Counted from the stretch's first letter, positions 49,118-63,858 are shown. The stretch: DNA of 64,000 nt from Candidatus Thorarchaeota archaeon (GCA_963726195.1 CAVSBO010000003.1:544001-608000), one strand, 5' to 3'. Notes: a model not told the origin generated them from the sequence alone. Numbers and translations: made by a program.

Positions 49118-49733
49118 CTGCGTGACTAGCCTCCAGACGCTTGGAACAGGGAGTCCCAAGCAGTGCTGCGGAATGCGACACACCCTGACAAATATCCCCA
49201 GCGCATCACGCGGAGCAGTATAATGCGAATCTCTACCAGCGTCTTGGATACTATGGAGCTCCCGAAATAGAAAATGCACTCTATTATTATGAATTCTTGA
49301 CACCAACAGGTTATGACATGCGTTACGATATACTCATTACGGAGTTCCTCGATTATTCAGCATTCAGTCGTGATTACTAGAGTGTGAAGTCAGGAGATCC
49401 ATGAAAACAACTCAAAATACCTACTAGCCCAGGCGCGCTTCTACGGCCTCAATGCACCGTAGGGCAGCACGCTAGCGATATGCCCACAGACTCTGCAAAC
49501 CCTTTCGATTCTCCGAATGCAAGGTGGTATCACAGGGCCTGCACTTCTCCGTAATCCCGTTGTTTGTACGGCCATCTTGTACCCCCGATGCTATGAAAAA
49601 GCATCCTAATGACTCTACTGCATCTCAGCGTTCCTTTGGCATTCGCTTGGGTCTTCTCTGGTTCTATACATGTCCACGACGTTGCATCCTAACACCCAAG
49701 AATCCAGTAAGGAGTTGTGATCATGGTGAAGAA

Positions 49734-50486
49734 ATGATAGCCAAGTTAGAGGCTCAGCTGCTTTCGCTCAGCGCAGTTCGCAGAAACGGCGTCGGCACGG
49801 TGGATGTCACAGGCCCACTTCAAGTGATGTTGAACAACGGAGACCGTTGCATCGTCAATGCAAGACTCCGATATCATGGGCCAGACACTAGTTCGTGGCT
49901 TGCGGTGGTAGTCGGTCTCAGGAGTCGAATTCTCGCCCCATTCAGCAGGTTCGACAGCGAGAGAAACCAGTTCTTGCCTTGTGACATCCCCGGTCTGGTC
50001 CCCGCTTTAGCTCTCACGGTGGCCCATCAGGATTGCGGACTCGCAGTGAGTGCCATAGCACATGATACATTCACCCACCTTGTCCTTGTGTTCGAAGGAG
50101 ATGTAGCCGCCAAGGGAGGTAATCTGAGATCGCTCGCCACGTCTGTTTGGAGCTTCATGAAACGTTGGACAGACTGGACGGATGTATTGCTGGCCACTGC
50201 TTCGCGTGATCCATCAGTAGCTCAGTGGAACGTGGACTGGCGTGAATTCCTCGCTGGAGAGTCAGGGTTCGTGACCATGCCCTGGTTCAAACCGATGAAT
50301 TACTCAGAGAGAGCTCTTGGGCTAGAGACAATCGTGGCGGCCTCTAAGTCTCTCTTGGCATCTGTTCTCAGCCAAGCTCAGATGGAGGATTCTGCAATTC
50401 GAACACTCACTTCTTGGCTGTATCAACTCGCACCACTTGTAGAGATTGTCGGGGGAATGGAAGCGGCAGAGGAGGCTGAAGTCTAA
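49734..50486 (+). CDS. Hypothetical protein, first gene of DNA-processing operon
   Basis: GGTGA RBS before ATG 49734; Trp-rich C-half; no known motif. Confidence 0.75.
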   Translation: MIAKLEAQLLSLSAVRRNGVGTVDVTGPLQVMLNNGDRCIVNARLRYHGPDTSSWLAVVVGLRSRILAPFSRFDSERNQFLPCDIPGLVPALALTVAHQDCGLAVSAIAHDTFTHLVLVFEGDVAAKGGNLRSLATSVWSFMKRWTDWTDVLLATASRDPSVAQWNVDWREFLAGESGFVTMPWFKPMNYSERALGLETIVAASKSLLASVLSQAQMEDSAIRTLTSWLYQLAPLVEIVGGMEAAEEAEV

Positions 50487-50487
50487 C

Positions 50488-50955
50488 ATGATGTGTGAAG
50501 ATGAATGTCGAAACCTTCCGAGATTGACTGTAGAGATCATGGGGCCCTCATGGATAGCCGGAGCAGTGACCGGCATCAAAGCGTCCAGAAGACGAAGCAC
50601 GGATTGGATTTGGGAATGTTTCGTCGAGGAGTTGTATGACACAGTCGAGCGGATGGGAGGAATTCAACCAGCCGAACCAGCCAGCTCACCGGCGGACGAG
50701 GACGGCTTCGCGGGCTCAGCATACGACACGCTGGGGGGTTACGTGAGCACAGCAGGCGAAATCCGTTCTCAGGGACTCTACTTCAGTCTCTCTCCGAAAC
50801 ACTATGAGAACGTTATGAGCCTGCTTCCGGACTTTGTGATGCTCAGGGCAAGAGGTGGTCTCATTGTGCCACACTATGAACTACGTTCCTTCCTGAATCT
50901 CGTGCCTGTGAACGGGCCGTTGTTGGACCAACTAGCCGAGGGGGGCATGCAATGA
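50488..50955 (+). CDS. Hypothetical protein
   Basis: GGAGG RBS, 1-nt gap to upstream gene, ATGA overlap with radA paralog. Confidence 0.7.
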   Translation: MMCEDECRNLPRLTVEIMGPSWIAGAVTGIKASRRRSTDWIWECFVEELYDTVERMGGIQPAEPASSPADEDGFAGSAYDTLGGYVSTAGEIRSQGLYFSLSPKHYENVMSLLPDFVMLRARGGLIVPHYELRSFLNLVPVNGPLLDQLAEGGMQ

Positions 50956-52028
50956 CAGAGCTTGAGGCGGTATCAGGAGTCGGGCCTGCAGTTGCCAAGA
51001 AACTGCGAGAAGTGTTTGTGACAACAGCTGAACTTCTAGCTGTGCAGAATCATGTGGACTTGCAGAACAAGACCAAGATGGGAGAAGGCACCGCTCTGAA
51101 GATCATACGAAACGCCAGACAATTGGTTGGGCTTTGCGGTTTCAAATCCGGTCTCGAAATCGAGCAAGAGATGTCGAGCAAGCCTAGGTTGAGTGTGGGA
51201 ATCGACAAGGCAAATGCAGCACTTCTTGGCGGAATTGAAACAGGTTCGGTCGTGGAGTTCTACGGTGCTGCCCGAAGTGGGAAGACACAGTGGTGCGGTC
51301 AACTTGCTGTTATGGTTCAGCTACCCAAGGAAAAGGGAGGACTTGAAGGCCGTGTGCTTTGGCTGGACACGGAGAGCTCCTTCAAACCATGGATTATCCG
51401 GGCAAACGCAGTGCGGTTTGGTCTGGACCCGGATGTTGCCTTGGGAAACATAGGTCATGCTCACATCGTAATGACTGAACAGATGACGCAGCTGTTTGAG
51501 AATATACCGCAGCTGTGCGCGGAGCAAGACTACAAGCTCGTAGTGATTGACTCATTGACTGGACTGTTCAGAGCTGAATACACCGGGCTTGAGCTACTGA
51601 GAGTGAGGCAGCAGGAAATGAACAGCCTCCTCAATCTGATGAGACGAACTGGTACCGCGACTGGCACAATCTTCTGCTACACCAACCAGGTCATGGCGAG
51701 CATGGGGACATTCAGGTCGAACCCGAACTCGCCCGTTGGCGGGCACATACTCTCGCACGCTTCTGACTATAGGTTCTACGTCAAGAAGAAGCTGAAGGAT
51801 GTGAGGGGTCTTCAGCTTCAAGATAATGCTGGAATACCCGAATTCGATCTTGATGTTGTCATTGGTTGGGGAGGGTTTTACACAGATGCGAAAACGAAGA
51901 AGAAACTCGAAGCAGACGTTCTAGAGTATCTTAGGAAAACCGGCTGGAACCCTGAGATCGCAGAGAGTGGCGAGGACTCTGAGGAAGTAAAGGAAGAGAC
52001 TGAGGAGATTGCGGAGGAAAACGAATAG
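50952..52028 (+). CDS. radA: RadA/Rad51 recombinase paralog
   Basis: HhH GVGP, GGIETG, GAARSGKTQ, LDTE, VIDSL..FRAEY..RQQ, TNQV, GGHILSHAS. Confidence 0.9.
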   Translation: MTELEAVSGVGPAVAKKLREVFVTTAELLAVQNHVDLQNKTKMGEGTALKIIRNARQLVGLCGFKSGLEIEQEMSSKPRLSVGIDKANAALLGGIETGSVVEFYGAARSGKTQWCGQLAVMVQLPKEKGGLEGRVLWLDTESSFKPWIIRANAVRFGLDPDVALGNIGHAHIVMTEQMTQLFENIPQLCAEQDYKLVVIDSLTGLFRAEYTGLELLRVRQQEMNSLLNLMRRTGTATGTIFCYTNQVMASMGTFRSNPNSPVGGHILSHASDYRFYVKKKLKDVRGLQLQDNAGIPEFDLDVVIGWGGFYTDAKTKKKLEADVLEYLRKTGWNPEIAESGEDSEEVKEETEEIAEENE

Positions 52029-52474
52029 TGCTGGCCAAAGAGAGAGGCATGTTCCGCATATATCAGTGCCCTCGATGTCGAAACATTGGATTTGCCCAAG
52101 TCGAAAGCGAGGAGTGTGTTTCACGATGCAGCCTGTGTCAAGGGCCCATTGTGCATATGCCCGCCATGCAGTATGCTGCGACCATTCAGGAGGCAGAGTC
52201 GTACGTCAAAGAGGCCGTAGCCGGATCGAAGCTGAAGCCAAGATCCGCAGGCAGCCTACGAACGATAGGGCTGAAGAAGCGAGTGTTCAACATAATTGAA
52301 GCTCTCGTGGACATGAACAGGGGTTTCCCAGTAACGCTGGACGAGGTTCTTCGTGAATGCACAGATGCCGGCATAGATACGGATAGGGCAACGGACTTCA
52401 TTGAAGCGCTTCTCACTGAAGGAACTCTCAGTGGAGACAAGCTCGGAATGAAACCAGCAGGGAGGCCTTCGTGA
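52028..52474 (+). CDS. Zn-ribbon + winged-helix protein
   Basis: CPRC..CSLC; C-terminal VTLDEVLRECTDAGI..FIEALLTEG (MCM C-terminal WH-like). Confidence 0.7.
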   Translation: MLAKERGMFRIYQCPRCRNIGFAQVESEECVSRCSLCQGPIVHMPAMQYAATIQEAESYVKEAVAGSKLKPRSAGSLRTIGLKKRVFNIIEALVDMNRGFPVTLDEVLRECTDAGIDTDRATDFIEALLTEGTLSGDKLGMKPAGRPS

Positions 52475-52475
52475 G

Positions 52476-53102
52476 ATGTCCGACACCGAGCATACAACGA
52501 CACCCATCTGGGTAGCGCCCACGCCCCCGAATGTCGCAGGAAGCTCTCTCATAAACTTGGCCAACCTGCTTCTAAGAGAGACAAACAACCGGGTCACAAC
52601 GCTCCGACAATGCGATGGCCCGAATCCGGAGCTCTTCATCGTTTCAAGAGTAGATTGGAAGGATTCCGACCCAGAGAAGCCCATGCTGCCTCAGTTGCCA
52701 AAGATTCTTTCTCTGCTTGAGACTTTGCGTGAGACGAAAGGCGTGCCTCACGAGATATTCTTGGATAGTAATGATGGTGTCGCAGTCTACTTGCCAACTG
52801 GATCAAGGGTTTCTGACCTGCCGCGGAACCCAAAAGAAGCCCTTCGGGTTCTCATGGCTCTCGTCCATGACACCGTCGCGAATATGCTCTCAACAATGCA
52901 AGATGTAGAAAACTGCTTCTGGATTGCCGCTCGCAGAAAGGGGTTCAGCCCTGAGATAGTCCAGAGAATGGCACTGAAGGAGCAACACTACGACTCGCCT
53001 GCGCTGGTTAGGGAGTTTCATAGAATATTGAGGAAGTACTTCTCGATTCGTTTTCACATTCAGAGGAGCGAGTCATGCCTGTACGTTGAGGAGGAAGACT
53101 GA
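52476..53102 (+). CDS. Hypothetical protein
   Basis: GGAGG RBS; coupled to both neighbours. Confidence 0.75.
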   Translation: MSDTEHTTTPIWVAPTPPNVAGSSLINLANLLLRETNNRVTTLRQCDGPNPELFIVSRVDWKDSDPEKPMLPQLPKILSLLETLRETKGVPHEIFLDSNDGVAVYLPTGSRVSDLPRNPKEALRVLMALVHDTVANMLSTMQDVENCFWIAARRKGFSPEIVQRMALKEQHYDSPALVREFHRILRKYFSIRFHIQRSESCLYVEEED

Positions 53103-55058
53103 TGGCAACTGTGAACGGTCCTCTCCGATACTTTCCATATACGCCCAGGCCGTACCAGGACCGGGCCGTTGCATTCGCCGCTCAAGTATTCTCATCCAAA
53201 TCGGTGGGACTTCTCTCTGCAGATTGTGGAGTGGGAAAGACCATCGCATCTCTTTCAGGCTACCTCGCTGCGCGTGCAGACGATGGCGAATCAAGGTTGA
53301 TTGTTCTCACCCGGACACACTCACAAGCTCGCGTATTCGAGAATGAACTAGTGACACTAAGACGCCTTCTTCCTTCTCTGACTGCCACGACAATCCAGTC
53401 GAGGGTCCATACCTGTCCAATAAAGGAGCAGGTTGGGTCAGTGTCTCTCACGGGGTTCATGAGAGCATGTGCGAATCTGATCAGGACAGGCAATTGTACT
53501 CATTACTGGGCCTTCTACAGGAAAGGGGATGGTAGAACTCAGATAAGGGACGGGGTTCAGCACGAAGTAGACGACCTGCTCGACTCCGGTGTTGTCACCC
53601 GGGACATTGTCGATGATCGTGCACGTGACATGGCTGTTTGCCCATATGAACTGATGAAACATTGTGCTAGGGAGAGCCGCATCGTGATAGGCCCCTATAG
53701 CTACCTGTTTCGCGCCCGTGTACGTGATGCGACTCTCAGTTCGCTGGCTACGAGCCTAGAGAAGCTCGACGTCATAGTCGATGAAGCTCACAATCTTCCA
53801 GGTCATATTCTGGAATCAGAAGCGGCCAAATTGAGTTGGGACGATCTCAAATGGCTGAAAGAGAACTCTGCTGAAATTGCCAAGGATTCTAGCGTGAAGT
53901 GGTTGGCCCAAGCCACGAACTTCCTCTGGGAGACAGTGACGATTGCCCTTGACGGATTGAATTCACGCAATGAGAAGGTACTTGACAAATGGGACGTGGC
54001 TCCAAGGTTCGTGGACGAGAACGGCTTGCGGCTTGTGAGTGCGGCTGACACGCTACTTGGAGACCCGGATGCTCTGTCGACCGTTGAGACTCCCTTCGAC
54101 AGACTGATTGAGTTTCTACTCGCAGCATTACGGGCGGCGAAGAGCGACGACTGGCACATATCAGTCGAAACTCGAAAATCGTTTCAGGAAGAACAGAGCC
54201 ATCCGGCTTGCGAACTCGTGATCAGGCCGCTGAACTCTGCCGGTCTTGCCGCGCCCGTGTTGAGGGGTGCGCGTTCTGCCCTTCTAATATCCGGCACTCT
54301 GAGACCTCTCGAGTACTATGCGAGACAGCTAGGTATAGCCAAACCACTCTCAGAGGACCTAGCGAGTCCCTATCGACGTGGGACAAGACTCATACTGGTT
54401 GACAAGAGTGTGACTACCAAATATGAAGCTTAGAAACGATGAACTCTGGCGTCGAATGGCTCAACGAATCCAAACCGCTCTCTTGTCACTGCCCGCAAAC
54501 AAGAGCGCTCTCATAGCCTTCCCGAGTTATGCGATTCTGCATGAAGTCCTCAGCTATGGGATAGACACAGGATATCGGGGGACGATTGTAGAGAGTCCGC
54601 GAGAGCGAATAGAGAACCTTGTGGAAGCAATCCTTGAAGGTCCAAAGGCCGTTTTTTGCGTCTATGGCGGGAAGTTCAGCGAGGGCGTGGATTTGGCTCG
54701 AGACGGTTCGAGCCTACTCGAAATGATAGTCGGTGTGGGGTTACCGTTTACGCCACCTAGTAGCTACTTGGAGGCACAGCGGAATTGGCTCGACGCAAGA
54801 TTCGGTGAGGGCACGGGGTACTTCTATGGCTCAGTCATTCCGTCCGTAAGGCAGGTTCTGCAGCTGATTGGCCGATTGAGAAGATCGCCGGAGGATTCAG
54901 GCGTAGTAATCCTACTTGACAATCGTTTCCTAAGGTACACATCTGTCTTGGGCGAGGACATGGTATCTGACATCTGGCCATTTGCAGACCTCGAAGAAAT
55001 GAGACTAGCTATTTCTGAGTTCCAGAGACAGAGGGAGGTATGCACGATTGCGTCTTGA
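53102..55058 (+). CDS. xpd: XPD/Rad3/DinG Fe-S DNA helicase (frameshift ~54427)
   Basis: RPYQ, ADCGVGKT, TRTHSQ, four Fe-S Cys, DEAH, SGTL, FPSY, GKFSEGVD, QLIGRLRR. Confidence 0.9.
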
Positions 55059-55650
55059 TTCAGTTCGAAATGAGTGGGTCCTGCTGTCGGTGCTACTCTT
55101 GTTTTGGTCCTACAAGTCAGTCACAGAGACTGGCATTCCCATCTCGGAACTAGTGTGGCTTGCCGGTCTAACAATCACAGTGGCAATCATGGTGATTCTC
55201 AAAGGGACGAACCGGAAACCACTCGTTTTGTGGAACGACCCCGATGGAATCCTGATGCTGGTGAGACCTTGGAGAGTAGAAGCATGCGCCGCCAGACTGA
55301 TGACAAGCGTCCCGTTGGGAATAGACCTCACTCGTTCTGCCTGGCGGGTATTGCAGTCAATGCATCCCGCAATGTCGGATGGCAGGAGTCGTTCACTGAG
55401 ATTCTTTGTTTGCAGGCCTCTAGGACAAGGGCCTTCACGTGTTGGCATCATCGTGGCGCGATCAAGATTCAGAATCGGTAACAGTGGAAGAAGGAGCGCG
55501 GCACTTTCGGATAGTGTTCTGCAAGATGCGAGAATCCTTGAGGGTGCAATGAAGGCAGCTTATCCACATATGCCCATCGAGAAAGCCGGCTTGCCCGATA
55601 TCATGATGGTTGTCCAAGGAGGAGTCCAATCCGTTGCAGAGCTCGAGTAG
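55048..55650 (+). CDS. Membrane protein (2 N-terminal TM + soluble domain)
   Basis: Two hydrophobic helices; LEGAMKAAYP segment resembles LESALKAAVP in the ATPase-like gene. Confidence 0.7.
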   Translation: MRLDSVRNEWVLLSVLLLFWSYKSVTETGIPISELVWLAGLTITVAIMVILKGTNRKPLVLWNDPDGILMLVRPWRVEACAARLMTSVPLGIDLTRSAWRVLQSMHPAMSDGRSRSLRFFVCRPLGQGPSRVGIIVARSRFRIGNSGRRSAALSDSVLQDARILEGAMKAAYPHMPIEKAGLPDIMMVVQGGVQSVAELE

Positions 55651-55942
55651 TCAGAGAACCGGGTTGACCCTGCCTCACAACGTGAAACCCGAGGCATTGA
55701 TGGATGCCCTCACAAAAGGTCATGGGTATCAATGGATTACCCTCGCAAGGCGGCCCGTCCTGTTAGTGTACGGTGAAGCGACTTCTCAAGAAATGCCCCA
55801 GCTTCTCTTTACGGGAAACACCACGCTCGTTGTTTCGAGTGCTGACCCAGCTTATGTGGAGCGTCTAAGAAGAATGCTGCAAGTACTCGAGCAGCAGGAA
55901 GAGAAGCAGTTCCTAGCACAGGAGGCCAAGAGCGGTGAGTAA
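55634..55942 (+). CDS. Small hypothetical protein
   Basis: GGAGG RBS + TTG; overlaps both neighbours. Confidence 0.6.
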   Translation: MQSSSSQRTGLTLPHNVKPEALMDALTKGHGYQWITLARRPVLLVYGEATSQEMPQLLFTGNTTLVVSSADPAYVERLRRMLQVLEQQEEKQFLAQEAKSGE

Positions 55943-58271
55943 AGGGTTAGTGGTGGGTCCCAAGCCCGAATATGACCCCTTTGGCGAAAGGACACAGTCT
56001 CCACAGGAGACATCTCCAACCGGAGAAATCAGGTGGGACAACAGAACTGCAGGCAGGTCCTTCAGACAATTAGGTGCAATGGGAATACTCATAGCTGTGC
56101 TTGGCACCGCATATCCTGAAGGTCTTCTCATTGGAACCGCGGCGATTCTCGCAGGCATCTTCTTACTATCTCGATTGAACGGACCTATGAAGATCGATGG
56201 CTGGATAACGTTGCAGCAGGGCGACGTTAGTCTTTCTTCGTCTGCTGGCAACCTTGAAGTCACCGATGTGAGGGGACGCAAGTATGCTGTCGGCATGACC
56301 TTGGACTCTGCTGGTGTCCACCTACTCGGAGACATGGGAGCACTCGTGCGGGCCGCGGACGACTCTAGCGGACTGTGTCTGTTGGTGAGTTTGAAGCCGA
56401 AAGATGGCAAAGCAATCCTGCAGGAAGACAAGATTAGCAGGTCCACTTGCAGGTTCTTGAATTCTCTTTCTGAAGAGGCGCTCAAGGGGTACTTCGATTC
56501 TCGTGGGGGTCTGTGGGCAGTCCATGCGACACTTATCGGATACGCAAGAGAACAAATCGGATTGCCTGTTCTTGAGTCCGCTTTGAAAGCGGCTGTGCCC
56601 GACCGCGGCTGGCAGACCATGAAGCCATTCGAATTACGTTCGCACATTGAAGAGGATGATGTCGTCGCCGACAATTCATCTTTCTATGGGACCGGGGAGG
56701 AGTTGTCCAAATGGCTGGTCCAGATGGCGACAGAACTATCGTCAGAAGTGGGCACAAACGTCCCGGCGGAATTCGTTGCGCCAATCAGAGAAAGAGAAGC
56801 AGACTACAAGCTAGGGTTCGTAATCAATCCTGAGACATTGCGGCTAGGTCCTCGAGTTGGGCTGTCCCACGGGGATCTCCTAGGCGGACTGATGGTTTGC
56901 GGGGGAACCCAGCCCGAAAGAGGGCTTGTATTGTCCCTTCTCACGGCGGAACTCCTGCAATCAGGCAAGAGAATCATCCTTGTGACCAATGACCGTGGCA
57001 CATTATCCTTGACAGGTCTGTGTGATGGCGCAGTCGGCCTTGAGCTTGGAAAGGACTTGGTGTTGAATCCTGCAGACCCAGAAGGAATGCAGAGAACAGA
57101 GTACGTGCCGCAGCTCATCGCGGCGCTCGAAGTGCTGTGTGGCACTGAGCTACGAACTGCAGTCGAGCTTGAGATTGCCGTCAACAGGGCGGCGAGTCTA
57201 GGAAACGGAACTGTGGCCGACATTGCGATGGCTGATTCCGCGGCAATGGGCACGACCACTGAGACTGATGCTTCGATTGGGACCACTGTGTCGAAGGCAT
57301 CACTGCTCGGCTTTGATGCTGTCCGCTCATTGCGTCAAGGCTCAGGGGCCAATGCATTCTATGGCACACAGACTGTATCGCTCCAGACGATGGCTCAAAC
57401 ACCCCTAGTTGTCATCGTGATGTCCCTGGAATCTTCGGCACTTCAGAGATTCGCTTGGGACCTGTTGTCAATAAAGGTCAGTGGAATGAAACCAGACTCC
57501 GATTTGGTTGTCATCCTTGATAACCCAGAGAACCTGCGAGTCAGGAATAGACCATTTGGAAATCGTGATGTTCGAAGCGAGAACATAATTCGCAAGCTGA
57601 TAATCAGAGGACCATTACTTGTTGCTTTGGACCATCCTGCTGACATGGCCGTCGGAGCCATCGGCAACCTTTCTTCATGTCTATCACTTCGACTCCGCGA
57701 TAGTGCAGACCTGAAAGTTGCTTCCGATCTTTTGGGTCTTGGAGTCATCGCCACGGGACTACACAGCAAGGCCAGACAATCATCCAGAGAGACATCCTTC
57801 CTGCGTGTCATGCCGCCGGACGTGGCGGTTCTGTCACGCGGCAGATCGGAGATTGGTATCCCAATTAGGTTGGACAAGACACCAACATCCCTCGGAACAC
57901 CTCCTCCACAGGAATTGTCGCGCAGGATATCTCGGTTTTCGCCGAGCTCCAAGGACAAAGAGACTCAGGCCAAGACTCTGCTTGAACAAGTCGCAGGCGG
58001 AGACACGGAGTTGGCCCGGAGTGTCCTCCGTTTGTTGATGAGGTACGAGCCTCTCACTGAGGAGGCCGTTCGGAAATTCATTAGGTCGGACAAGCGTCAT
58101 GAGAATGCGGACGTCGAGGGAATCTTGGCCCGCTTGGAAAGGGCGAACATGATTCTTCGTGGGCACGAAGTGCACGGCGGTGTATCTTACACTAACTTCC
58201 GTGTTACGATGAAAGGAACAATGGCAATGCGGCAAGAAGTCCCAGAAGGTGGTCGCGATGTTGGTCACTGA
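55935..58271 (+). CDS. Membrane-anchored HerA/VirB4/FtsK-fold pseudo-ATPase with C-terminal winged helix
   Basis: 2 TM; fold-level matches LMVCGGTQPERG (Walker A site), VVILDNPENL (Walker B site), LVALDHPAD, NLSSCLSLRL..DL..LLG, LRVMPPDVA. Confidence 0.7.
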   Translation: MSKGLVVGPKPEYDPFGERTQSPQETSPTGEIRWDNRTAGRSFRQLGAMGILIAVLGTAYPEGLLIGTAAILAGIFLLSRLNGPMKIDGWITLQQGDVSLSSSAGNLEVTDVRGRKYAVGMTLDSAGVHLLGDMGALVRAADDSSGLCLLVSLKPKDGKAILQEDKISRSTCRFLNSLSEEALKGYFDSRGGLWAVHATLIGYAREQIGLPVLESALKAAVPDRGWQTMKPFELRSHIEEDDVVADNSSFYGTGEELSKWLVQMATELSSEVGTNVPAEFVAPIREREADYKLGFVINPETLRLGPRVGLSHGDLLGGLMVCGGTQPERGLVLSLLTAELLQSGKRIILVTNDRGTLSLTGLCDGAVGLELGKDLVLNPADPEGMQRTEYVPQLIAALEVLCGTELRTAVELEIAVNRAASLGNGTVADIAMADSAAMGTTTETDASIGTTVSKASLLGFDAVRSLRQGSGANAFYGTQTVSLQTMAQTPLVVIVMSLESSALQRFAWDLLSIKVSGMKPDSDLVVILDNPENLRVRNRPFGNRDVRSENIIRKLIIRGPLLVALDHPADMAVGAIGNLSSCLSLRLRDSADLKVASDLLGLGVIATGLHSKARQSSRETSFLRVMPPDVAVLSRGRSEIGIPIRLDKTPTSLGTPPPQELSRRISRFSPSSKDKETQAKTLLEQVAGGDTELARSVLRLLMRYEPLTEEAVRKFIRSDKRHENADVEGILARLERANMILRGHEVHGGVSYTNFRVTMKGTMAMRQEVPEGGRDVGH

Positions 58272-60463
58272 GACTGACATACCAAGCTACGTTCAGAAAG
58301 TGCTTGGTGGCATCGGCCTAGCACCGCGGGGCGTCCAAAAGGCGGCCATTGACAACGGGTTGCTCGAAGGAAAGAGCATCATGGTATGCAGTCCGACTGG
58401 TTCAGGCAAGACTCTCGTTGGCGAAATGGGTGTTCTTCGAGCTGTGGTTTCTGGTCGAAAGGGGCTGTATATGGTACCACTTCGGGCTCTTGCGCTTCAG
58501 GTCGCATCGATATTCAGAGAGAGGTACGGAAGAATCGGCATCAGAGTCGGAATGAGCACTGGAGACTATCAGACCGACGGATCGGAGTTGGCAGAATGTG
58601 ACGTTGTTGTTACAACATATGAAAGAGCCGACTCTCTCCTGAGGCATCAAGCGTCTTGGATAACCGAGATAGGCACGATCGTGATTGACGAGGTTCAGAG
58701 TATTTCAGAACCAAGAAGAGGAGCCCGCCTCGAGAGCACGATTATTCGATTCAACCGGCTTGTCGACGACCTACAAATCATAGCTCTCTCGGCTACGATA
58801 GCAGCTCCCGATGAACTGGCAGAATGGCTTCGATGCGATCTTATCGAGAGTGACGAGAGGCCCGTTCCGCTCCACTGCAAAGTCCTATGCTGCAATAGCA
58901 AACAGGGAATGGTCAAGGACCTAGTTATGACTACTGTGCAAGGGAACGGACAAGCAATCGTTTTCCATCGAACCCGAAGAGAAGCTGAAGTTGAGGCGTT
59001 CCGTCTAGCGTCAGATGTAGGCCGTCAGACTCACAATAGCAGAGAGGAACCGCCTCGACACCGAGCTGGAGTCTCTCGAGAACTGGGCAGTCAGAGTACC
59101 GTCGGAATTGAAGACTGTGATGCACGATGGTACCGGCTTCCACCATGCGGGTCTCAACGCTAGAGTCCGTGATGTTGTTGAACGGCTGTTTCGCACCGGG
59201 CTCATTAGGGTGGTTTGTGCCACAACAACTCTCGCCGCCGGCATGGACCTGCCAGCTCGCACAGTCATAGTCACATCAGTGATTTCGCCTGAGAACAACG
59301 GAGAACTCCTAAACGCCAATAGGGTGCACCAGATGCTCGGCAGAGCAGGACGCCCGAGCCATGACAAGATTGGAGTCGGCATCATACTTGCAGGAAGCGA
59401 GGGCGAAGCTGACGAGCTTGAAGTGAGGTACTTTGAAGACAGAACTGGAGAAGCTGCCGAAGAAGTTCTAATCCCGAAGTATGACAGAGCCAGAAGTGTC
59501 CTAGGTTCTCCGAGTTCGACCACTGAGCAGCTTTTGGTTGCCCTCGATGCAATGGGAGAAGCGTCACTGCAGGAAGTCGAGGACGGAATAATGAGCCAGT
59601 CATTCTTGACGTATTGCGGTATTAGGGACACCCATTCTCCCGCGCGCCTGATCAATCTCGGGGAAATTACGGCTCAGGCCGCAATTGAACACCATGCTCT
59701 GCCCGATTCGCTTCGTGCAGCCAGACAGAAGCTGCTGGGTGCTGTGACTTTCAGAGAGAAGGACGAGACCGCCATAGGTGCCATAGTCACGGACTGGGAC
59801 CGCACTCAATACACATGTCGGTATTCCACTCGGCTATCAAGCAGTGGACTTGTGGATGGCCCACAATGCTCCTGCGGCCGGCCCATTGACCCCCAAGGCA
59901 TACTCTGTACGCACCTGCTTGTGTTGGGTCTGTCAGCGGCCGCGGAGCTGGGTAGCTTGGCAGACTATGTCATTCCCTTGTCTCTCAGCGAATCAAGTCC
60001 ACTTGGTGTCTTGACCAAGCTCGGACTAGTGGAGGGCGCGGAAGAGGGAAAGCTTAGGCCAACTAAGCTTGGGCGTTTGGTCAACCGGTTGTATCTAGGT
60101 CTGCCAACAGCCAGGGAAATGATTGCCCTTCTGCCTACAGTGGAGGACAGTACTTCCCTGCTCTGGCTCGTCAGGCACTTGGTTTCACTGGAAACGGGCA
60201 TGGCGCTAACCGAGCAATTCGAACAGCTAATCGCTGCATTAGCGTCTACTGACACAACAATCGCGGATTTGGCAAGGATTGCGGAACTTCACGAAGGAGA
60301 CGTATACGGTCTCATAGAGACAGTGCGATGGTTGCTGCATTCCATTGACGCCGTTGCGGCCCTCGGTGGATTGTCGAATGTCTGCGGAATGACAACCCGG
60401 TTGTCAGATGCTATCGAATCTAGAATGAAAAAGGGTGAATCCAATGACAACAACGGAAGCTGA
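58258..60463 (+). CDS. Hel308/Ski2-like SF2 helicase with SWIM Zn finger (frameshift ~59029)
   Basis: SPTGSGKT, PLRALA, TTYE, DEVQ, LSAT, FHHAGL, TTTLAAGMDLPA, QMLGRAGRP; CSC..LCTH. Confidence 0.9.
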
Positions 60464-62219
60464 CACACCAATGGATATTCCCGAGAAGACCAAGCAATCT
60501 CCTGGAACAGCCAATCAAACGGCAGCGCAGGAAGAGACCAGACGAGAAGCCAGTGACATCACTGCCATCCTAAAGAGCTCGGGTCACAGGGTTCATGTCT
60601 ACTCAAATGGGATCATACTAGGAGTCCGACTAGAGGCAATTCCCGGGACCCACAGCGTGCATGTTGACATCGCGCACGTGGTTGACCTGCGTTCAGGGAA
60701 AGTCTGGAAGACCACTACCGCTATGATGGCTGCGGTATTGGGACTTGTTAACAAATCGCTCCAAAGCATTCTCGAGGACATCGGTCTTGAGGAATCGCTG
60801 AAAGAGAAGCTATTGACTATGCCTTGGGGTCGAATTCGCCTGTCCACGCTTTTGGCACAATCAGGGAAGACCTCCTCGATAGCAATTGAGACGAGATGGG
60901 CGTATGTTATCTACAACGAAGTCCGACCCAAAGCAGACCTTTCCTGGCTGACAGATACAAAGAGAGTACTGAGTATCACCGACTTTGCTCTTTCGCGCCA
61001 GAGCGACATAAGGGCGTCAGCTGCGAAGCTGAGAACCATAATAGCCACTAACAAGACCAGCATGATTCGGGGTGCTGTGGGAAACGGGTGGTATGGCGTG
61101 CTAGCCCTTGTCGCCTCATTGGGTGGACTGATGACTGCCTCAGCGGTCGGCCTAACGCATCCAACCGGAATGGCCATTCCGCTCGTCTTTGCAGGAGTGG
61201 CGGGAGCCGTTGCCATCGACCTTCTATTCACATCAAGAAAGAGGTTCAAAAAACTCGTAAGCGTATTGAAGACCGAGAACCTACGTGCGTCTGAAGTGGG
61301 AGACTCTGTCAGAGCCAAGGAATCGGCTGCAAAGAACCGAGATCTGCTAGAGCTATTGGAAGACCTCACTTTCGTGGTTTCTCCCCTGATGGTGATGGCG
61401 GCTGAAGCACTGCAAGCAGGAGAAGTTGACCGCGCTGTTTCGTCAGCCTCTTGCGTTCTGGATGAGTGTGTACGGCTCGCGCCTTACTCTGGAGACAACG
61501 TGGAACCTATCCTTGGGAGAACAGACGAAGGCCTGAGGAGGTTTCTCGGATTCATGAAACGTCTCGGGGCCACATCAGAAGAAGAGACCTTGGCGGTTGC
61601 CTACGTGGGACTCACGGGACATCTATCGAGTCCGATTGGATTCAGTGAGGTTGTCGCCCACATGACATCACTGACCAATGCGCTCTATGATGTTGGAGTG
61701 CTCAGCCAAGAAGCAAAGGACAAACTCGACAACGTCATGAACACGTGGGCCATGAAGAAGTACGCTGGTGAACTTGAAAATAGCCTTCGAGAACCAGATG
61801 AACCCGAGCCGGTTCCATCTTCGACGCGGGCAGAAGTAGGGACTCAACCAGAACTCACCCACCCTGTGGCGCGCAAGAGGCAAACCGACAGACAAGGTGA
61901 TGTCAAACAGACGTTTGGGCTCATCCGTGATTCTACAACCACTCCTGAAGACTCGCCGCCCATAGAGAAAGTGAAAACACCTGTTGTGTTGCCGATGCAG
62001 GAGTCGCTTGACAGAGCGGATCCTATGAAGTCTACCGGCCGCGACGACCGAGGTCCATCTGAGAAGGGAGGCGAAGTTGTCAAGGTTACGATTCGCAAGA
62101 GAGACAACAGGATTACTCAACTGCAGAGTCAGAAGCCTCTCGCAGAGGCTGTGGTCGGACAGCCTGCCAGCGGACATGCCGCGAAAGGAGAAGAAAGCAA
62201 TGAGGACCCAGACGTGTAG
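60444..62219 (+). CDS. Membrane protein (central TM hairpin, helical domain, disordered tail)
   Basis: GGTGA RBS; two hydrophobic helices near aa 215-265; low-complexity C-terminus. Confidence 0.75.
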   Translation: MTTTEADTPMDIPEKTKQSPGTANQTAAQEETRREASDITAILKSSGHRVHVYSNGIILGVRLEAIPGTHSVHVDIAHVVDLRSGKVWKTTTAMMAAVLGLVNKSLQSILEDIGLEESLKEKLLTMPWGRIRLSTLLAQSGKTSSIAIETRWAYVIYNEVRPKADLSWLTDTKRVLSITDFALSRQSDIRASAAKLRTIIATNKTSMIRGAVGNGWYGVLALVASLGGLMTASAVGLTHPTGMAIPLVFAGVAGAVAIDLLFTSRKRFKKLVSVLKTENLRASEVGDSVRAKESAAKNRDLLELLEDLTFVVSPLMVMAAEALQAGEVDRAVSSASCVLDECVRLAPYSGDNVEPILGRTDEGLRRFLGFMKRLGATSEEETLAVAYVGLTGHLSSPIGFSEVVAHMTSLTNALYDVGVLSQEAKDKLDNVMNTWAMKKYAGELENSLREPDEPEPVPSSTRAEVGTQPELTHPVARKRQTDRQGDVKQTFGLIRDSTTTPEDSPPIEKVKTPVVLPMQESLDRADPMKSTGRDDRGPSEKGGEVVKVTIRKRDNRITQLQSQKPLAEAVVGQPASGHAAKGEESNEDPDV

Positions 62220-62883
62220 TCATTCCTTTCCGACCTTATTGAAAATCACAGGGCTGGTCCATGTTTGGGGTCCTGCAGGTGCTGGCAAGAGCCTGCTCGC
62301 CATCGCAATTGCGGCCGAGGCATCTCTCGACTCTCGTGTCGAGTGGATCAGCACAGATGGCAAATCATCTTTCATATCTCATCTGAAAAGAAACGTGCAA
62401 CACCGTGGGAGTGCTGCCAATGTTTTCGTCACAATGACGCACAACCACAATGAGGTGCGGCAGACCATTCTCGACCTTGTCACCTCTCTTGAAGGCATGA
62501 GTGCGTTGATTGTGGTCGACCCCTTGACACGTGTCGTGGACATGGCACGTTCCGAGCCTGTAATGTGGGGCCAAGAACTCATCGAAGAAGCCTTGCCAAC
62601 TCTAGCAGCCCTCGCAGCTGGCGGATCAATTGTGCTTGTTACGAGCGAGTGCAGGTCACTTGAGGAAGGAGAGAAGACGCCTGTTCATCACAAGACCATC
62701 AGACGCTGGGCGGACAACGAAATCCTCGTGCAGAGGGAAAAGGCCAGCATGTACTCGACAATCACCAGCATTGATCCGAAGTCTGGTGCACAGAAAGAAG
62801 TCGGCCGACTAAGACTCCTGGAAACAGGATTGATTGAGATTAGTATCTGTCAGCCCGGGTCAGAAACAAGGAGGAGCACTTAG
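62200..62883 (+). CDS. RadB-like RecA-family ATPase
   Basis: HVWGPAGAGKS, WISTD, LIVVD, VLVTSE. Confidence 0.8.
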   Translation: MRTQTCSHSFPTLLKITGLVHVWGPAGAGKSLLAIAIAAEASLDSRVEWISTDGKSSFISHLKRNVQHRGSAANVFVTMTHNHNEVRQTILDLVTSLEGMSALIVVDPLTRVVDMARSEPVMWGQELIEEALPTLAALAAGGSIVLVTSECRSLEEGEKTPVHHKTIRRWADNEILVQREKASMYSTITSIDPKSGAQKEVGRLRLLETGLIEISICQPGSETRRST

Positions 62884-62886
62884 GAC

Positions 62887-63858
62887 ATGTTTGGAGGCAT
62901 TCTATGGAAAGGAATTGTGTTCGGCATGGCAGTCATGCTGGTCTTGACTGTCGGGACCGAACTCTTGGCATCAGTCGTGTCCGTCGTGGTGTCTGCCCGC
63001 CGCGGCGACCTAATTCCTATTGTCACGGTCTTTCTCGGTACTCTCTTCATTTCCCTAATCCTGCGGCGACTCAAGAAGCACTCTCCGACCAAGTTACTCT
63101 TGTCAATCTTGGTCTACGGAACAATCGGATACGCAGCCGTGGTTTCATTCATAGCTGTTCTTCCATGGGGCCTTCTTCCATCTCTCATGTCCGCGTCGAT
63201 GACAATACTTGGCTTCTCGGTTGCAGCGACTCCCACGCGGTTTGGAGCGTATCGTTCGCAGACCAAGCTTCGTTCTCTGGCACTGCGTACAGACAACCCA
63301 TCAGGTCGAATTACATCATCGGCGATTGCTGCTCTGTCCGACGCCCTCACGGAACAGGCAAGGGTTGTAATCATTCAGGAAGGGGACAGGGACAAGGTCG
63401 TTCAGCTCATGAAGGAGCGACCCCTTCTGCCCGTATCGATTACTCGCCTTGCCGACTGTTATGCAGTTGTCGTCACGTCCCCAAATTCCGACGAGGTTGT
63501 CTTTCGCAGAGCAATCGACACATTGTCAGAGTTTGGCATATCCCGTGTGAAGCGCGCACGGCATTTGCTCGCAGAGGCTATCCTCATGCTTCCGCTCATT
63601 GACGAGTCATATGGTTTCAGCATGCGTGAGTACCGAGTTGTAAGGGACGACACGACGATGACGCACGTGATTTCTCAATGGCCCGAAAGACTGACTATCT
63701 TTGCGACCAAAGAAGGTCTCGGGGCTCTGGTTCCGGAACGGGCCGCCACAGGTCTGAAGACTGAGCAACTCCCGCGCGGCCTTGAAACCGACGTGGTTCT
63801 GTTTAGGAATTACTCTCTGCTCCAAGGAGATGATGAGTCTGGATCACAAGCCGCTTGA
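62887..63858 (+). CDS. Membrane protein (4 N-terminal TM + soluble domain)
   Basis: AGGAG RBS; four hydrophobic segments. Confidence 0.75.
   Translation: MFGGILWKGIVFGMAVMLVLTVGTELLASVVSVVVSARRGDLIPIVTVFLGTLFISLILRRLKKHSPTKLLLSILVYGTIGYAAVVSFIAVLPWGLLPSLMSASMTILGFSVAATPTRFGAYRSQTKLRSLALRTDNPSGRITSSAIAALSDALTEQARVVIIQEGDRDKVVQLMKERPLLPVSITRLADCYAVVVTSPNSDEVVFRRAIDTLSEFGISRVKRARHLLAEAILMLPLIDESYGFSMREYRVVRDDTTMTHVISQWPERLTIFATKEGLGALVPERAATGLKTEQLPRGLETDVVLFRNYSLLQGDDESGSQAA

Follow-up and report, generated by a model that had tools for sequence, protein, structure and literature searches.

Motors of the VirB4/HerA type are defined by ATP-driven translocation, and a gene of Candidatus Thorarchaeota archaeon (GCA_963726195.1) raises the question of what such a protein may be kept for when its catalytic residues are no longer in place. 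The gene lies in the stretch CAVSBO010000003.1:544001-608000, a window of 64,000 nucleotides (nt), within a cassette of recombination and repair genes, and an earlier note on this window had described its product as a HerA/VirB4-fold protein with every catalytic motif eroded, a transmembrane (TM) anchor and a C-terminal winged helix. Our analysis points to a VirB4-derived protein, conserved in Asgard archaea without the catalytic residues, which on balance probably acts as a pseudo-ATPase and non-catalytic hub at the membrane.

Positions 55935-58271 of the plus strand form a single open frame of 778 codons with a GTG start, by open reading frame (ORF) calling and translation, and we consider this start correct because orthologs open with the identical N-terminal pattern, M-x-[KR]-x-L-[IV]-L-G-x-K-P-E-x-D-P. 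All the motif strings quoted in the earlier note are present in the 778-residue translation: VCGGTQPERG (residues 321-330), VLNP (376-379), ILDNPENL (527-534), ALDHP (564-568), NLSSCLSLRL (578-587), DLKVASDLLG (592-601), MPPDVA (626-631) and a C-terminus that reads EPLTEEAV...ILARLERANMI...FRVTMKG. The protein had no match in Pfam, NCBIfam, PHROGs or the Protein Data Bank (PDB) sequences, the last searched with phmmer; Pfam assigned no family at E <= 0.1 to it or to any of 40 orthologs, and the CagE_TrbE_VirB, AAA_10, DUF87 and HerA_C models did not match it. The sole match in PADLOC was a weak one to the JetA winged helix, and literature searches found no published description of the family.

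We explored the fold of the protein with an AlphaFold2 (AF2) model built on the alignment of the 40 orthologs (mean predicted local distance difference test score, pLDDT, 77). Read from the N-terminus, this model shows a short peptide on the cytoplasmic side and a TM hairpin, next an N-domain of VirB4 type, then a RecA-like core of VirB4/HerA type, and at the C-terminus a winged helix that resembles PadR. The core had its best VIA-align match in VirB4 (4ag5_A; Z 28.4, root-mean-square deviation [rmsd] 2.9, 326 residues aligned), with further matches to DndH-C (Z 25.0), Sulfolobus HerA (4d2i, Z 23.9) and TrwB (Z 19.5). Foldseek with the full-length model placed TrwK/VirB4 of R388 first (5e-14, about 615 columns), with HerA at 5e-11. 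Since the N-terminal part was barely covered in these full-length matches, residues 1-285 were folded separately (pLDDT 76.6), and the best 14 Foldseek matches of this N-domain were all TrwK/VirB4 (E 3e-4 to 1e-2, 177-204 columns), followed by noise; VIA-align gave Z 9.0 to TrwK 7o42_A (179 residues aligned, rmsd 6.2), the next match being an unrelated fold at 6.5. The predicted likeness of the N-domain to VirB4 is thus of moderate strength. The HerA/VirB4 fold proposed in the earlier note can be refined accordingly: the core fits both and a HerA/FtsK-type fold is predicted, but the protein is VirB4-like rather than HerA-like, because its N-domain matches only TrwK/VirB4 and its core matches VirB4 best.

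The two other structural elements named in that note were borne out. The TM anchor corresponds to a hairpin of two AF2 helices (residues 43-59 and 61-81) with Kyte-Doolittle peaks at 57 and 69-73, and this stretch is hydrophobic in all 40 orthologs. The C-terminal winged helix (residues about 684-778) is predicted to have a PadR-type fold, with Z scores between 10.5 and 12.2 (3elk 12.2, RosR 11.5, VanR 11.5, other PadR entries 10.5-11.2), and the C-termini of distant homologs gave sub-threshold Pfam matches to PadR, HTH_34 and HTH_24.

The register of the ATPase motifs was set with hhalign, by aligning the family profile with an intact ATPase (AAA_10/DUF87) encoded in this genome (Prob 96.9, E 2e-10, 314 columns). 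The profile also aligned with a HerA-like ORF of this genome (E 5e-6); against PDB sequences it gave only non-significant HerA matches (E 0.09-0.24; 8j4u, 8ziq), the register of which was consistent, the weak match to HerA 8j4u spanning the Walker B to sensor segment with its EEAH lying on the Walker B remnant. In this register the Walker A sequence GSTGSGKT falls on G324-T-Q-P-E-R329-G330-L331, the D-E of Walker B on D529-N530 and the sensor T-Q-x-P on L565-D566-H567-P568. Residues were counted in the 40 orthologs, all from Thorarchaeota (38-85% identical), and in 23 distant homologs. Position 330, which corresponds to the Walker A Lys, is variable in the orthologs (R in 9, L in 7, K and M in 4 each, G and N in 3 each) and hydrophobic in the distant homologs. 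The preceding R329 is present in 40/40 orthologs and 20/23 distant homologs, as is G323, and C322 is found in 40/40 orthologs and is not kept in the distant homologs. None of 59 further homologs had a canonical Walker A in the core, and no homolog carried GK[ST].

The remaining motifs combine replaced and retained positions. D529 is kept in 38/40 orthologs and 17/23 distant homologs, and the position of the catalytic Glu (530) is mostly occupied by G (18), D (8), N (4) or E (3) in orthologs and is not conserved in distant homologs (D in 6, S and E in 3 each); position 532 (+3) is acidic (E/D) in 34/40 and 20/23, respectively. Where the sensor Gln would stand (566), orthologs have E (21) or D (13), and nine of the 23 distant homologs have Q; P568 is kept in 39/40 orthologs. 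Downstream, the family has a signature of its own, in which R614, S616, R618, E619, S621, L623 and M626 are present in 40/40 orthologs, with R614 in 22/23 and L623 in 23/23 distant homologs. The description of every catalytic motif as eroded therefore holds for the Walker A Lys and Thr, the catalytic Glu and the sensor Gln, all of which are replaced, whereas the Asp of Walker B, the glycines of the P-loop and the acidic residue at +3 are kept. Judged from these alignments, the catalytic residues are gone throughout the family, and the pocket appears not to be drifting and to have been rebuilt around the arginines R329 and R614 and a D-x-x-[DE] motif of acidic residues.

In comparison with an 85%-identical ortholog (synonymous divergence, dS, 0.74), the ratio of non-synonymous to synonymous change (dN/dS) was 0.11 for the whole gene, 0.095 for the core, 0.06 for the winged helix, which is the most constrained whole domain, and 0.03 for the HSKAR loop, the lowest value in the gene. 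An independently assembled strain with 99.0% identity (L036) showed 9 synonymous codon differences and 3 non-synonymous ones, all outside the motifs. Strain-specific decay was ruled out by this comparison of strains, by the sharing of the motif loss among the 40 orthologs and homologs from Lokiarchaeota and Baldrarchaeia, and by the purifying selection on the gene (dN/dS about 0.1). Neither of the two outcomes that this note had named beforehand as speaking against its reading, the lack of a HerA/FtsK fold and orthologs with intact Walker motifs, was found. A two-domain VirB4 body has thus long been kept across Thorarchaeota, Lokiarchaeota and Baldrarchaeia, while its catalytic residues were shed and a hairpin and a winged helix were added; since the body has been kept for so long without these residues, the scaffold has a conserved non-motor use.

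The reading that we favour, with moderate confidence, is that of a VirB4-derived pseudo-ATPase which acts as a non-catalytic membrane hub. The protein would no longer hydrolyse ATP, and its body would still oligomerise, probably like VirB4, and dock to small TM partners, with the winged helix, the conserved HSKAR loop or both in contact with DNA. Small membrane partners and the helicase that is translationally coupled to the VirB4-like gene would be held at the membrane by the hub (its start overlaps the upstream neighbour by 8 nt and its stop the downstream helicase by 14 nt), and the energy-requiring work would be done by the co-encoded helicases and RecA-fold ATPases. The ring proposed in the earlier note, which would bind or channel DNA and draw its motor activity from the adjacent helicases, is likewise suggested by fold, gene context and gene overlap. 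This is the most economical reading because VirB4 works as a membrane oligomer. VirB4/TrwK (4ag5, 7o42, 7o43, 8rtd) is the closest structural match for both domains, sharing the alpha/beta N-domain, the RecA-like C-domain and the same helical insertions, and is likewise membrane-associated. The Asgard protein differs from it in being archaeal and in having neither the Walker A GK[ST], the catalytic Glu and the sensor Gln nor a CagE_TrbE_VirB or AAA_10 match; moreover, it brings a TM hairpin of its own and ends in a PadR-like winged helix, and its gene belongs to a recombination cassette, with no recognisable VirB2-B11 genes around it. Among conserved but catalytically dead VirB4 proteins, the closest parallel is RvhB4-II of Rickettsiales; this paralog of VirB4 is strictly conserved, has no conserved ATPase active sites and is thought to assemble non-catalytically (PMC4676284). 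In contrast with the Asgard protein, RvhB4-II is bacterial, has no winged helix and is part of a recognisable type IV secretion system (T4SS), where it stands beside an active partner, RvhB4-I; the Asgard cassette examined holds no active VirB4-type partner.

Four points weigh against the hub. The retained Walker B Asp, P-loop glycines and acidic +3 residue and the invariant arginines could, as far as the alignments go, still make some ligand site. A winged helix can make protein contacts rather than DNA contacts. By Pfam, NCBIfam, PADLOC and PHROGs, no neighbour is identifiable as a channel (VirB6/CedA-like) or as a pilin. Finally, the XPD and helicase genes of the cassette carry frameshifts in this assembly (detailed below) which, if real, may deprive the strain of a fully functional cassette.

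Table 1. Coordinates in the window of the VirB4-like gene, of its domains and motifs and of neighbouring genes (domain assignments are predicted).
Feature	Residues	Position	Strand	Remarks
VirB4-like putative pseudo-ATPase, whole gene		55935..58271	+	778 residues; membrane-anchored; C-terminal winged helix
Conserved cytoplasmic N-terminal peptide	5-37	55947..56045	+	Alignments; low AF2 pLDDT
TM hairpin	43-81	56061..56177	+	AF2 helices; hydropathy
VirB4-type N-terminal alpha/beta domain	~94-262	56214..56720	+	Fold of residues 1-285
Inter-domain linker	254-285	56694..56789	+	Ortholog alignment; partly low pLDDT
VirB4/HerA-type RecA-like core	281-655	56775..57899	+	VIA, Foldseek, hhalign
P-loop remnant G-L-M-V-C-G-G-T-Q-P-E-R-G-L	318-331	56886..56927	+	No GK[ST]; R329 invariant
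Walker B remnant LVVILD-N-P-E-N-L	524-534	57504..57536	+	Asp kept, catalytic Glu lost
Sensor remnant LLVALDHPAD	561-570	57615..57644	+	Gln replaced by Asp/Glu
Family signature G-x-H-S-K-A-R-x-S-x-R-E-x-S-F-L-R-x-M	608-626	57756..57812	+	Alignment counts
PadR-like winged helix-turn-helix	684-770	57984..58244	+	VIA; sub-threshold Pfam matches in homologs
200-residue upstream partner		55048..55650	+	TM hairpin; syntenic in all Thorarchaeota loci
~100-residue soluble upstream partner		55610..55942	+	Syntenic; stop overlaps VirB4-like start by 8 nt
Hel308/Ski2-like helicase		58258..60463	+	Pfam DEAD, Helicase_C; overlaps VirB4-like stop by 14 nt

Outside the folded domains, the ortholog alignments revealed two conserved segments. 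In the N-terminal peptide, G8, P11, D14, P15, W34 and R37 are invariant or nearly so, which makes this peptide a candidate partner-binding motif. In the inter-domain linker, W260, L261, Q263, E267, L268, E271, G273, P277 and F280 are invariant, and the part P-[AG]-[EQ]-F-[IV]-x-P is retained also in distant homologs. Both the peptide and the linker, which reads W-L-V-Q-L-x-S-E-L-x-x-E-V-G-x-N-V-P, are near-invariant, yet of low AF2 confidence; by their conservation they look like partner docking motifs.

Five loci, from Thorarchaeota and from a related lineage, have an identical gene order around the VirB4-like gene. The cassette begins with two unknown genes, RadA, two small unknown genes, XPD, a 200-residue TM protein and a protein of about 100 residues, continues with the VirB4-like gene, the Hel308/Ski2-like helicase, a TM protein of about 560-594 residues and a RadB-like ATPase, and ends with a TM protein of about 320 residues, a Rad51-like protein and an XPG/FEN nuclease. 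In the window, about 14 successive plus-strand genes (49524-63858) overlap or abut, in an order retained in the Thorarchaeota loci L001, L003, L007 and L021. The cassette RadA (50952-52028) is a second, more divergent copy, with 182 bits to the Rad51 model; the stronger RadA (C3:520799-521515, 313 bits) is located about 74 kb upstream on the same contig, and Thorarchaeota genomes without the cassette retain only the strong one. Neither in the window nor in the related loci did the cassette include a gene of the NurA, Mre11 or Rad50 families. The Lokiarchaeota and Baldrarchaeia homologs have a helicase and small ORFs nearby, with a KaiC/RadB-like ATPase beside the Baldrarchaeia homolog.

Two genes of the cassette are interrupted in this assembly. 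The helicase is split into ORFs of 304 and 451 residues by an extra A at 59029 (CAGACTC vs CAG-CTC) and is intact in relatives at 730-735 residues (734-735 in the 99%-identical L036 and in orthologs). The XPD gene (53102-55058) carries an extra T at 54430-54431 (GCTTAG vs GC-TAG) that yields ORFs of 443 and 211 residues; it is unbroken, at about 651-655 residues, in L036 and in the orthologs of L020 and L021, and the 1-nt insertion is due to an error of the assembly or else is a frameshift specific to this strain.

A DNA import or exchange system derived from a T4SS, as an Asgard counterpart of crenarchaeal Ced/Ted, would also account for the VirB4-type N- and C-domains with their membrane hairpin, for the several TM proteins interleaved in the operon and for the accessory distribution of the cassette. 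The dead VirB4-like protein would then be the cytoplasmic gate of a conduit formed with the neighbouring TM proteins, and incoming DNA would pass directly to the co-encoded RadA, helicases and nuclease. Ced and Ted are importers derived from VirB4, VirB6 and VirB2, and Ted loci also include Rad50 and HerA (PMC9905601). Their motors, CedB and TedB, are archaeal chromosomal VirB4/HerA-like ATPases that power transport together with small TM proteins and are tied to recombinational DNA repair (PMC9905601), and by these published descriptions the Asgard protein resembles them in being archaeal, chromosomal and VirB4/HerA-like, in its small TM partners and in its recombination link. However, in that description CedB and TedB are active ATPases and drive translocation (PMC9905601), whereas the Asgard protein has no catalytic residues and no identified CedA/VirB6-like or pilin partner. 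At the sequence level, Pfam, NCBIfam, PADLOC and PHROGs gave no recognisable VirB6/CedA or VirB2 match among the neighbours, nor any to VirB3, B8-B11 or D4, and the window showed no genes for pili or aggregation. With neither a channel nor a pilin identified, and with CedB and TedB described as active ATPases, we regard DNA import as possible though unlikely. With no greater confidence, the cassette as a whole might be a T4SS-descended Asgard machine that takes up or exchanges DNA at the membrane and recombines it on the spot, the VirB4 motor having become a passive winged-helix DNA dock and the energy being supplied by superfamily 2 (SF2) helicases and RecA-fold paralogs.

The PadR-like character of the C-terminal domain, apparent from structure and from the sub-threshold PadR, HTH_34 and HTH_24 matches in homologs, together with the low dN/dS of this domain and the fact that the gene always travels with the cassette, could instead indicate a membrane-tethered transcription regulator. 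Such a regulator would recognise a cassette operator through its winged helix, and the VirB4-like body, as a sensing or sequestering domain, would release or activate the helix on a membrane or DNA-damage signal. PadR regulators (3elk, 5x11, 7wjp) do share the fold of the C-terminal 90 residues (Z 10.5-12.2), the helix pattern L-x-R-L-E-x-x-x-[IL] and the wing R-x-T-x-K-G; unlike them, however, the Asgard winged helix is not free-standing but fused to a 680-residue membrane protein, and it has no Pfam match at E <= 0.1. Moreover, a two-domain VirB4 body of 650 residues, with a constrained core and HSKAR loop kept across Asgard archaea, would be a large outlay for a sensor, and the gene lies mid-operon, overlapping structural genes on both sides, and is not placed as a divergent regulator. 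A regulatory role therefore seems doubtful to us.

A deviant but active nucleotide site, in which R329 would replace the phosphate contact of the Walker A Lys, R614 would serve as an arginine finger and D529 and E532 would bind the metal, draws on the fact that R329, R614, D529 and position 532 are the most conserved core positions across the family, distant homologs included, and that the P-loop glycines and the beta1-loop-helix geometry are kept. The register makes such a site improbable: R329 aligns with the last Gly, not the Lys, of GxxGxGK, variable or hydrophobic residues occupy 330 and 331, the AF2 helix begins at 326, so that a loop of only about 3 residues follows the strand, and the catalytic Glu and sensor Gln are absent.

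We consider it very unlikely that the cassette serves in defence against mobile elements, like SIR2-HerA, DUF4297-HerA or Hachiman-type helicase systems, with the dead ring as an assembly platform. The cassette is indeed patchy and accessory in its occurrence, HamB models in PADLOC match the helicase next to the VirB4-like gene and HerA-scaffolded defence complexes are among the structural matches, but HamB matches are expected for any Hel308/Ski2-like helicase, and PADLOC gave no defence match for the VirB4-like protein, apart from that to the JetA winged helix, or for the other unknown neighbours. The recombination-type content (RadA, RadB-like, XPD, FEN/XPG), in an order fixed across lineages, is atypical of defence islands. 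As for HerA itself, the end-resection helicase that works with NurA (4d2i, 9x1l; SIR2-HerA and DUF4297-HerA scaffolds), the likeness lies in the FtsK-HerA superfamily core (Z 23.9) and in the DNA repair context; by contrast, where HerA has an N-terminal HAS barrel, the alpha/beta N-domain of the Asgard protein has clear matches only to the TrwK N-domain, with no HerA chain among the matches listed, and the protein has neither a DUF87 or HerA_C match nor an intact P-loop nor NurA as a neighbour.

It is scarcely credible that an integrated conjugative element left this gene behind as a decaying remnant on its way to becoming a pseudogene, in spite of the VirB4 derivation of the gene and its two frameshifted neighbours, given a reading frame open over 778 residues, dN/dS of about 0.1, a motif state common to 40 orthologs down to 38% identity and to the Lokiarchaeota and Baldrarchaeia homologs, and the absence of both frameshifts from the 99%-identical strain.

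Beyond the protein, the compact accessory cassette brings membrane proteins together with a second recombinase, a flap nuclease, Rad51-like paralogs and two repair helicases, and to our knowledge the known archaeal repair genes are not arranged in this way. The cassette allows the Ced/Ted idea to be tested in Asgard archaea, that is, whether they handle DNA at the membrane. There is also a gap in annotation: because Pfam, NCBIfam, PADLOC and PHROGs have no model for the family, it is at present invisible to annotation.

The family comprises 129 full-length homologs in Thorarchaeota, all without an assigned name, and an exhaustive search of 1.84 billion representatives gave just 65 matches. Homologs with a named source come from Thorarchaeota, from metagenome-assembled genomes labelled Promethearchaeota, Hodarchaeota and Odinarchaeota, and from Lokiarchaeota and Baldrarchaeia. 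The genome studied here has a single copy of the VirB4-like gene and, elsewhere, at least 8 true DUF87-type ATPase ORFs. The finding that 282 of 301 Asgard genomes gave a match at E <= 1e-5 is not usable as a prevalence, since this number is inflated by cross-matches to true ATPases. The gene is accessory: together with the 594-residue membrane protein and the second RadA, it is absent from three Thorarchaeota genomes that are 85-92% complete. Its apparent absence from a genome of the same genus (G116) probably reflects a gap in the assembly, since the other cassette genes found there are on separate contigs.

Three forms of the protein were distinguished. The first, of about 780 residues, is that of Thorarchaeota. 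The second, of about 520-535 residues, found in Baldrarchaeia and others, is without the TM hairpin and the N-domain, which are encoded by a separate upstream gene of about 220 residues (about 219 in Baldrarchaeia). The third, of about 1235-1345 residues, makes up one large family, and the P-loop is absent from the one copy read. One Asgard protein of about 1263 residues appears to carry two N-domain-type modules; the N-domain profile did not match this long form.

The two small genes upstream of the VirB4-like gene have features of their own. The 200-residue TM protein gave a weak hhalign match to the VirB4-like N-domain (Prob 45, E 2e-4, 106 columns), a similarity by which it may be a paralog of this domain, and a still weaker one to the first module of the 1263-residue long form (Prob 27); its domain carries the motifs S-V-P-L-G-I-D-L and A-A-Y-P-H-x-P. 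The protein of about 100 residues, kept in all the Thorarchaeota loci examined, has a sub-threshold Pfam match at residues 72-97 to Secretin_N (E 4e-5, 24 bits against a cut-off of 28), a small domain of ring-building type. In Lokiarchaeota (WJJF01000499.1, L005:7694-10141), an unannotated ORF of 815 residues is located 3.5 kb from an 814-residue family member, on the opposite strand, and adjoins an XPG-like gene; it is possibly a second paralog.

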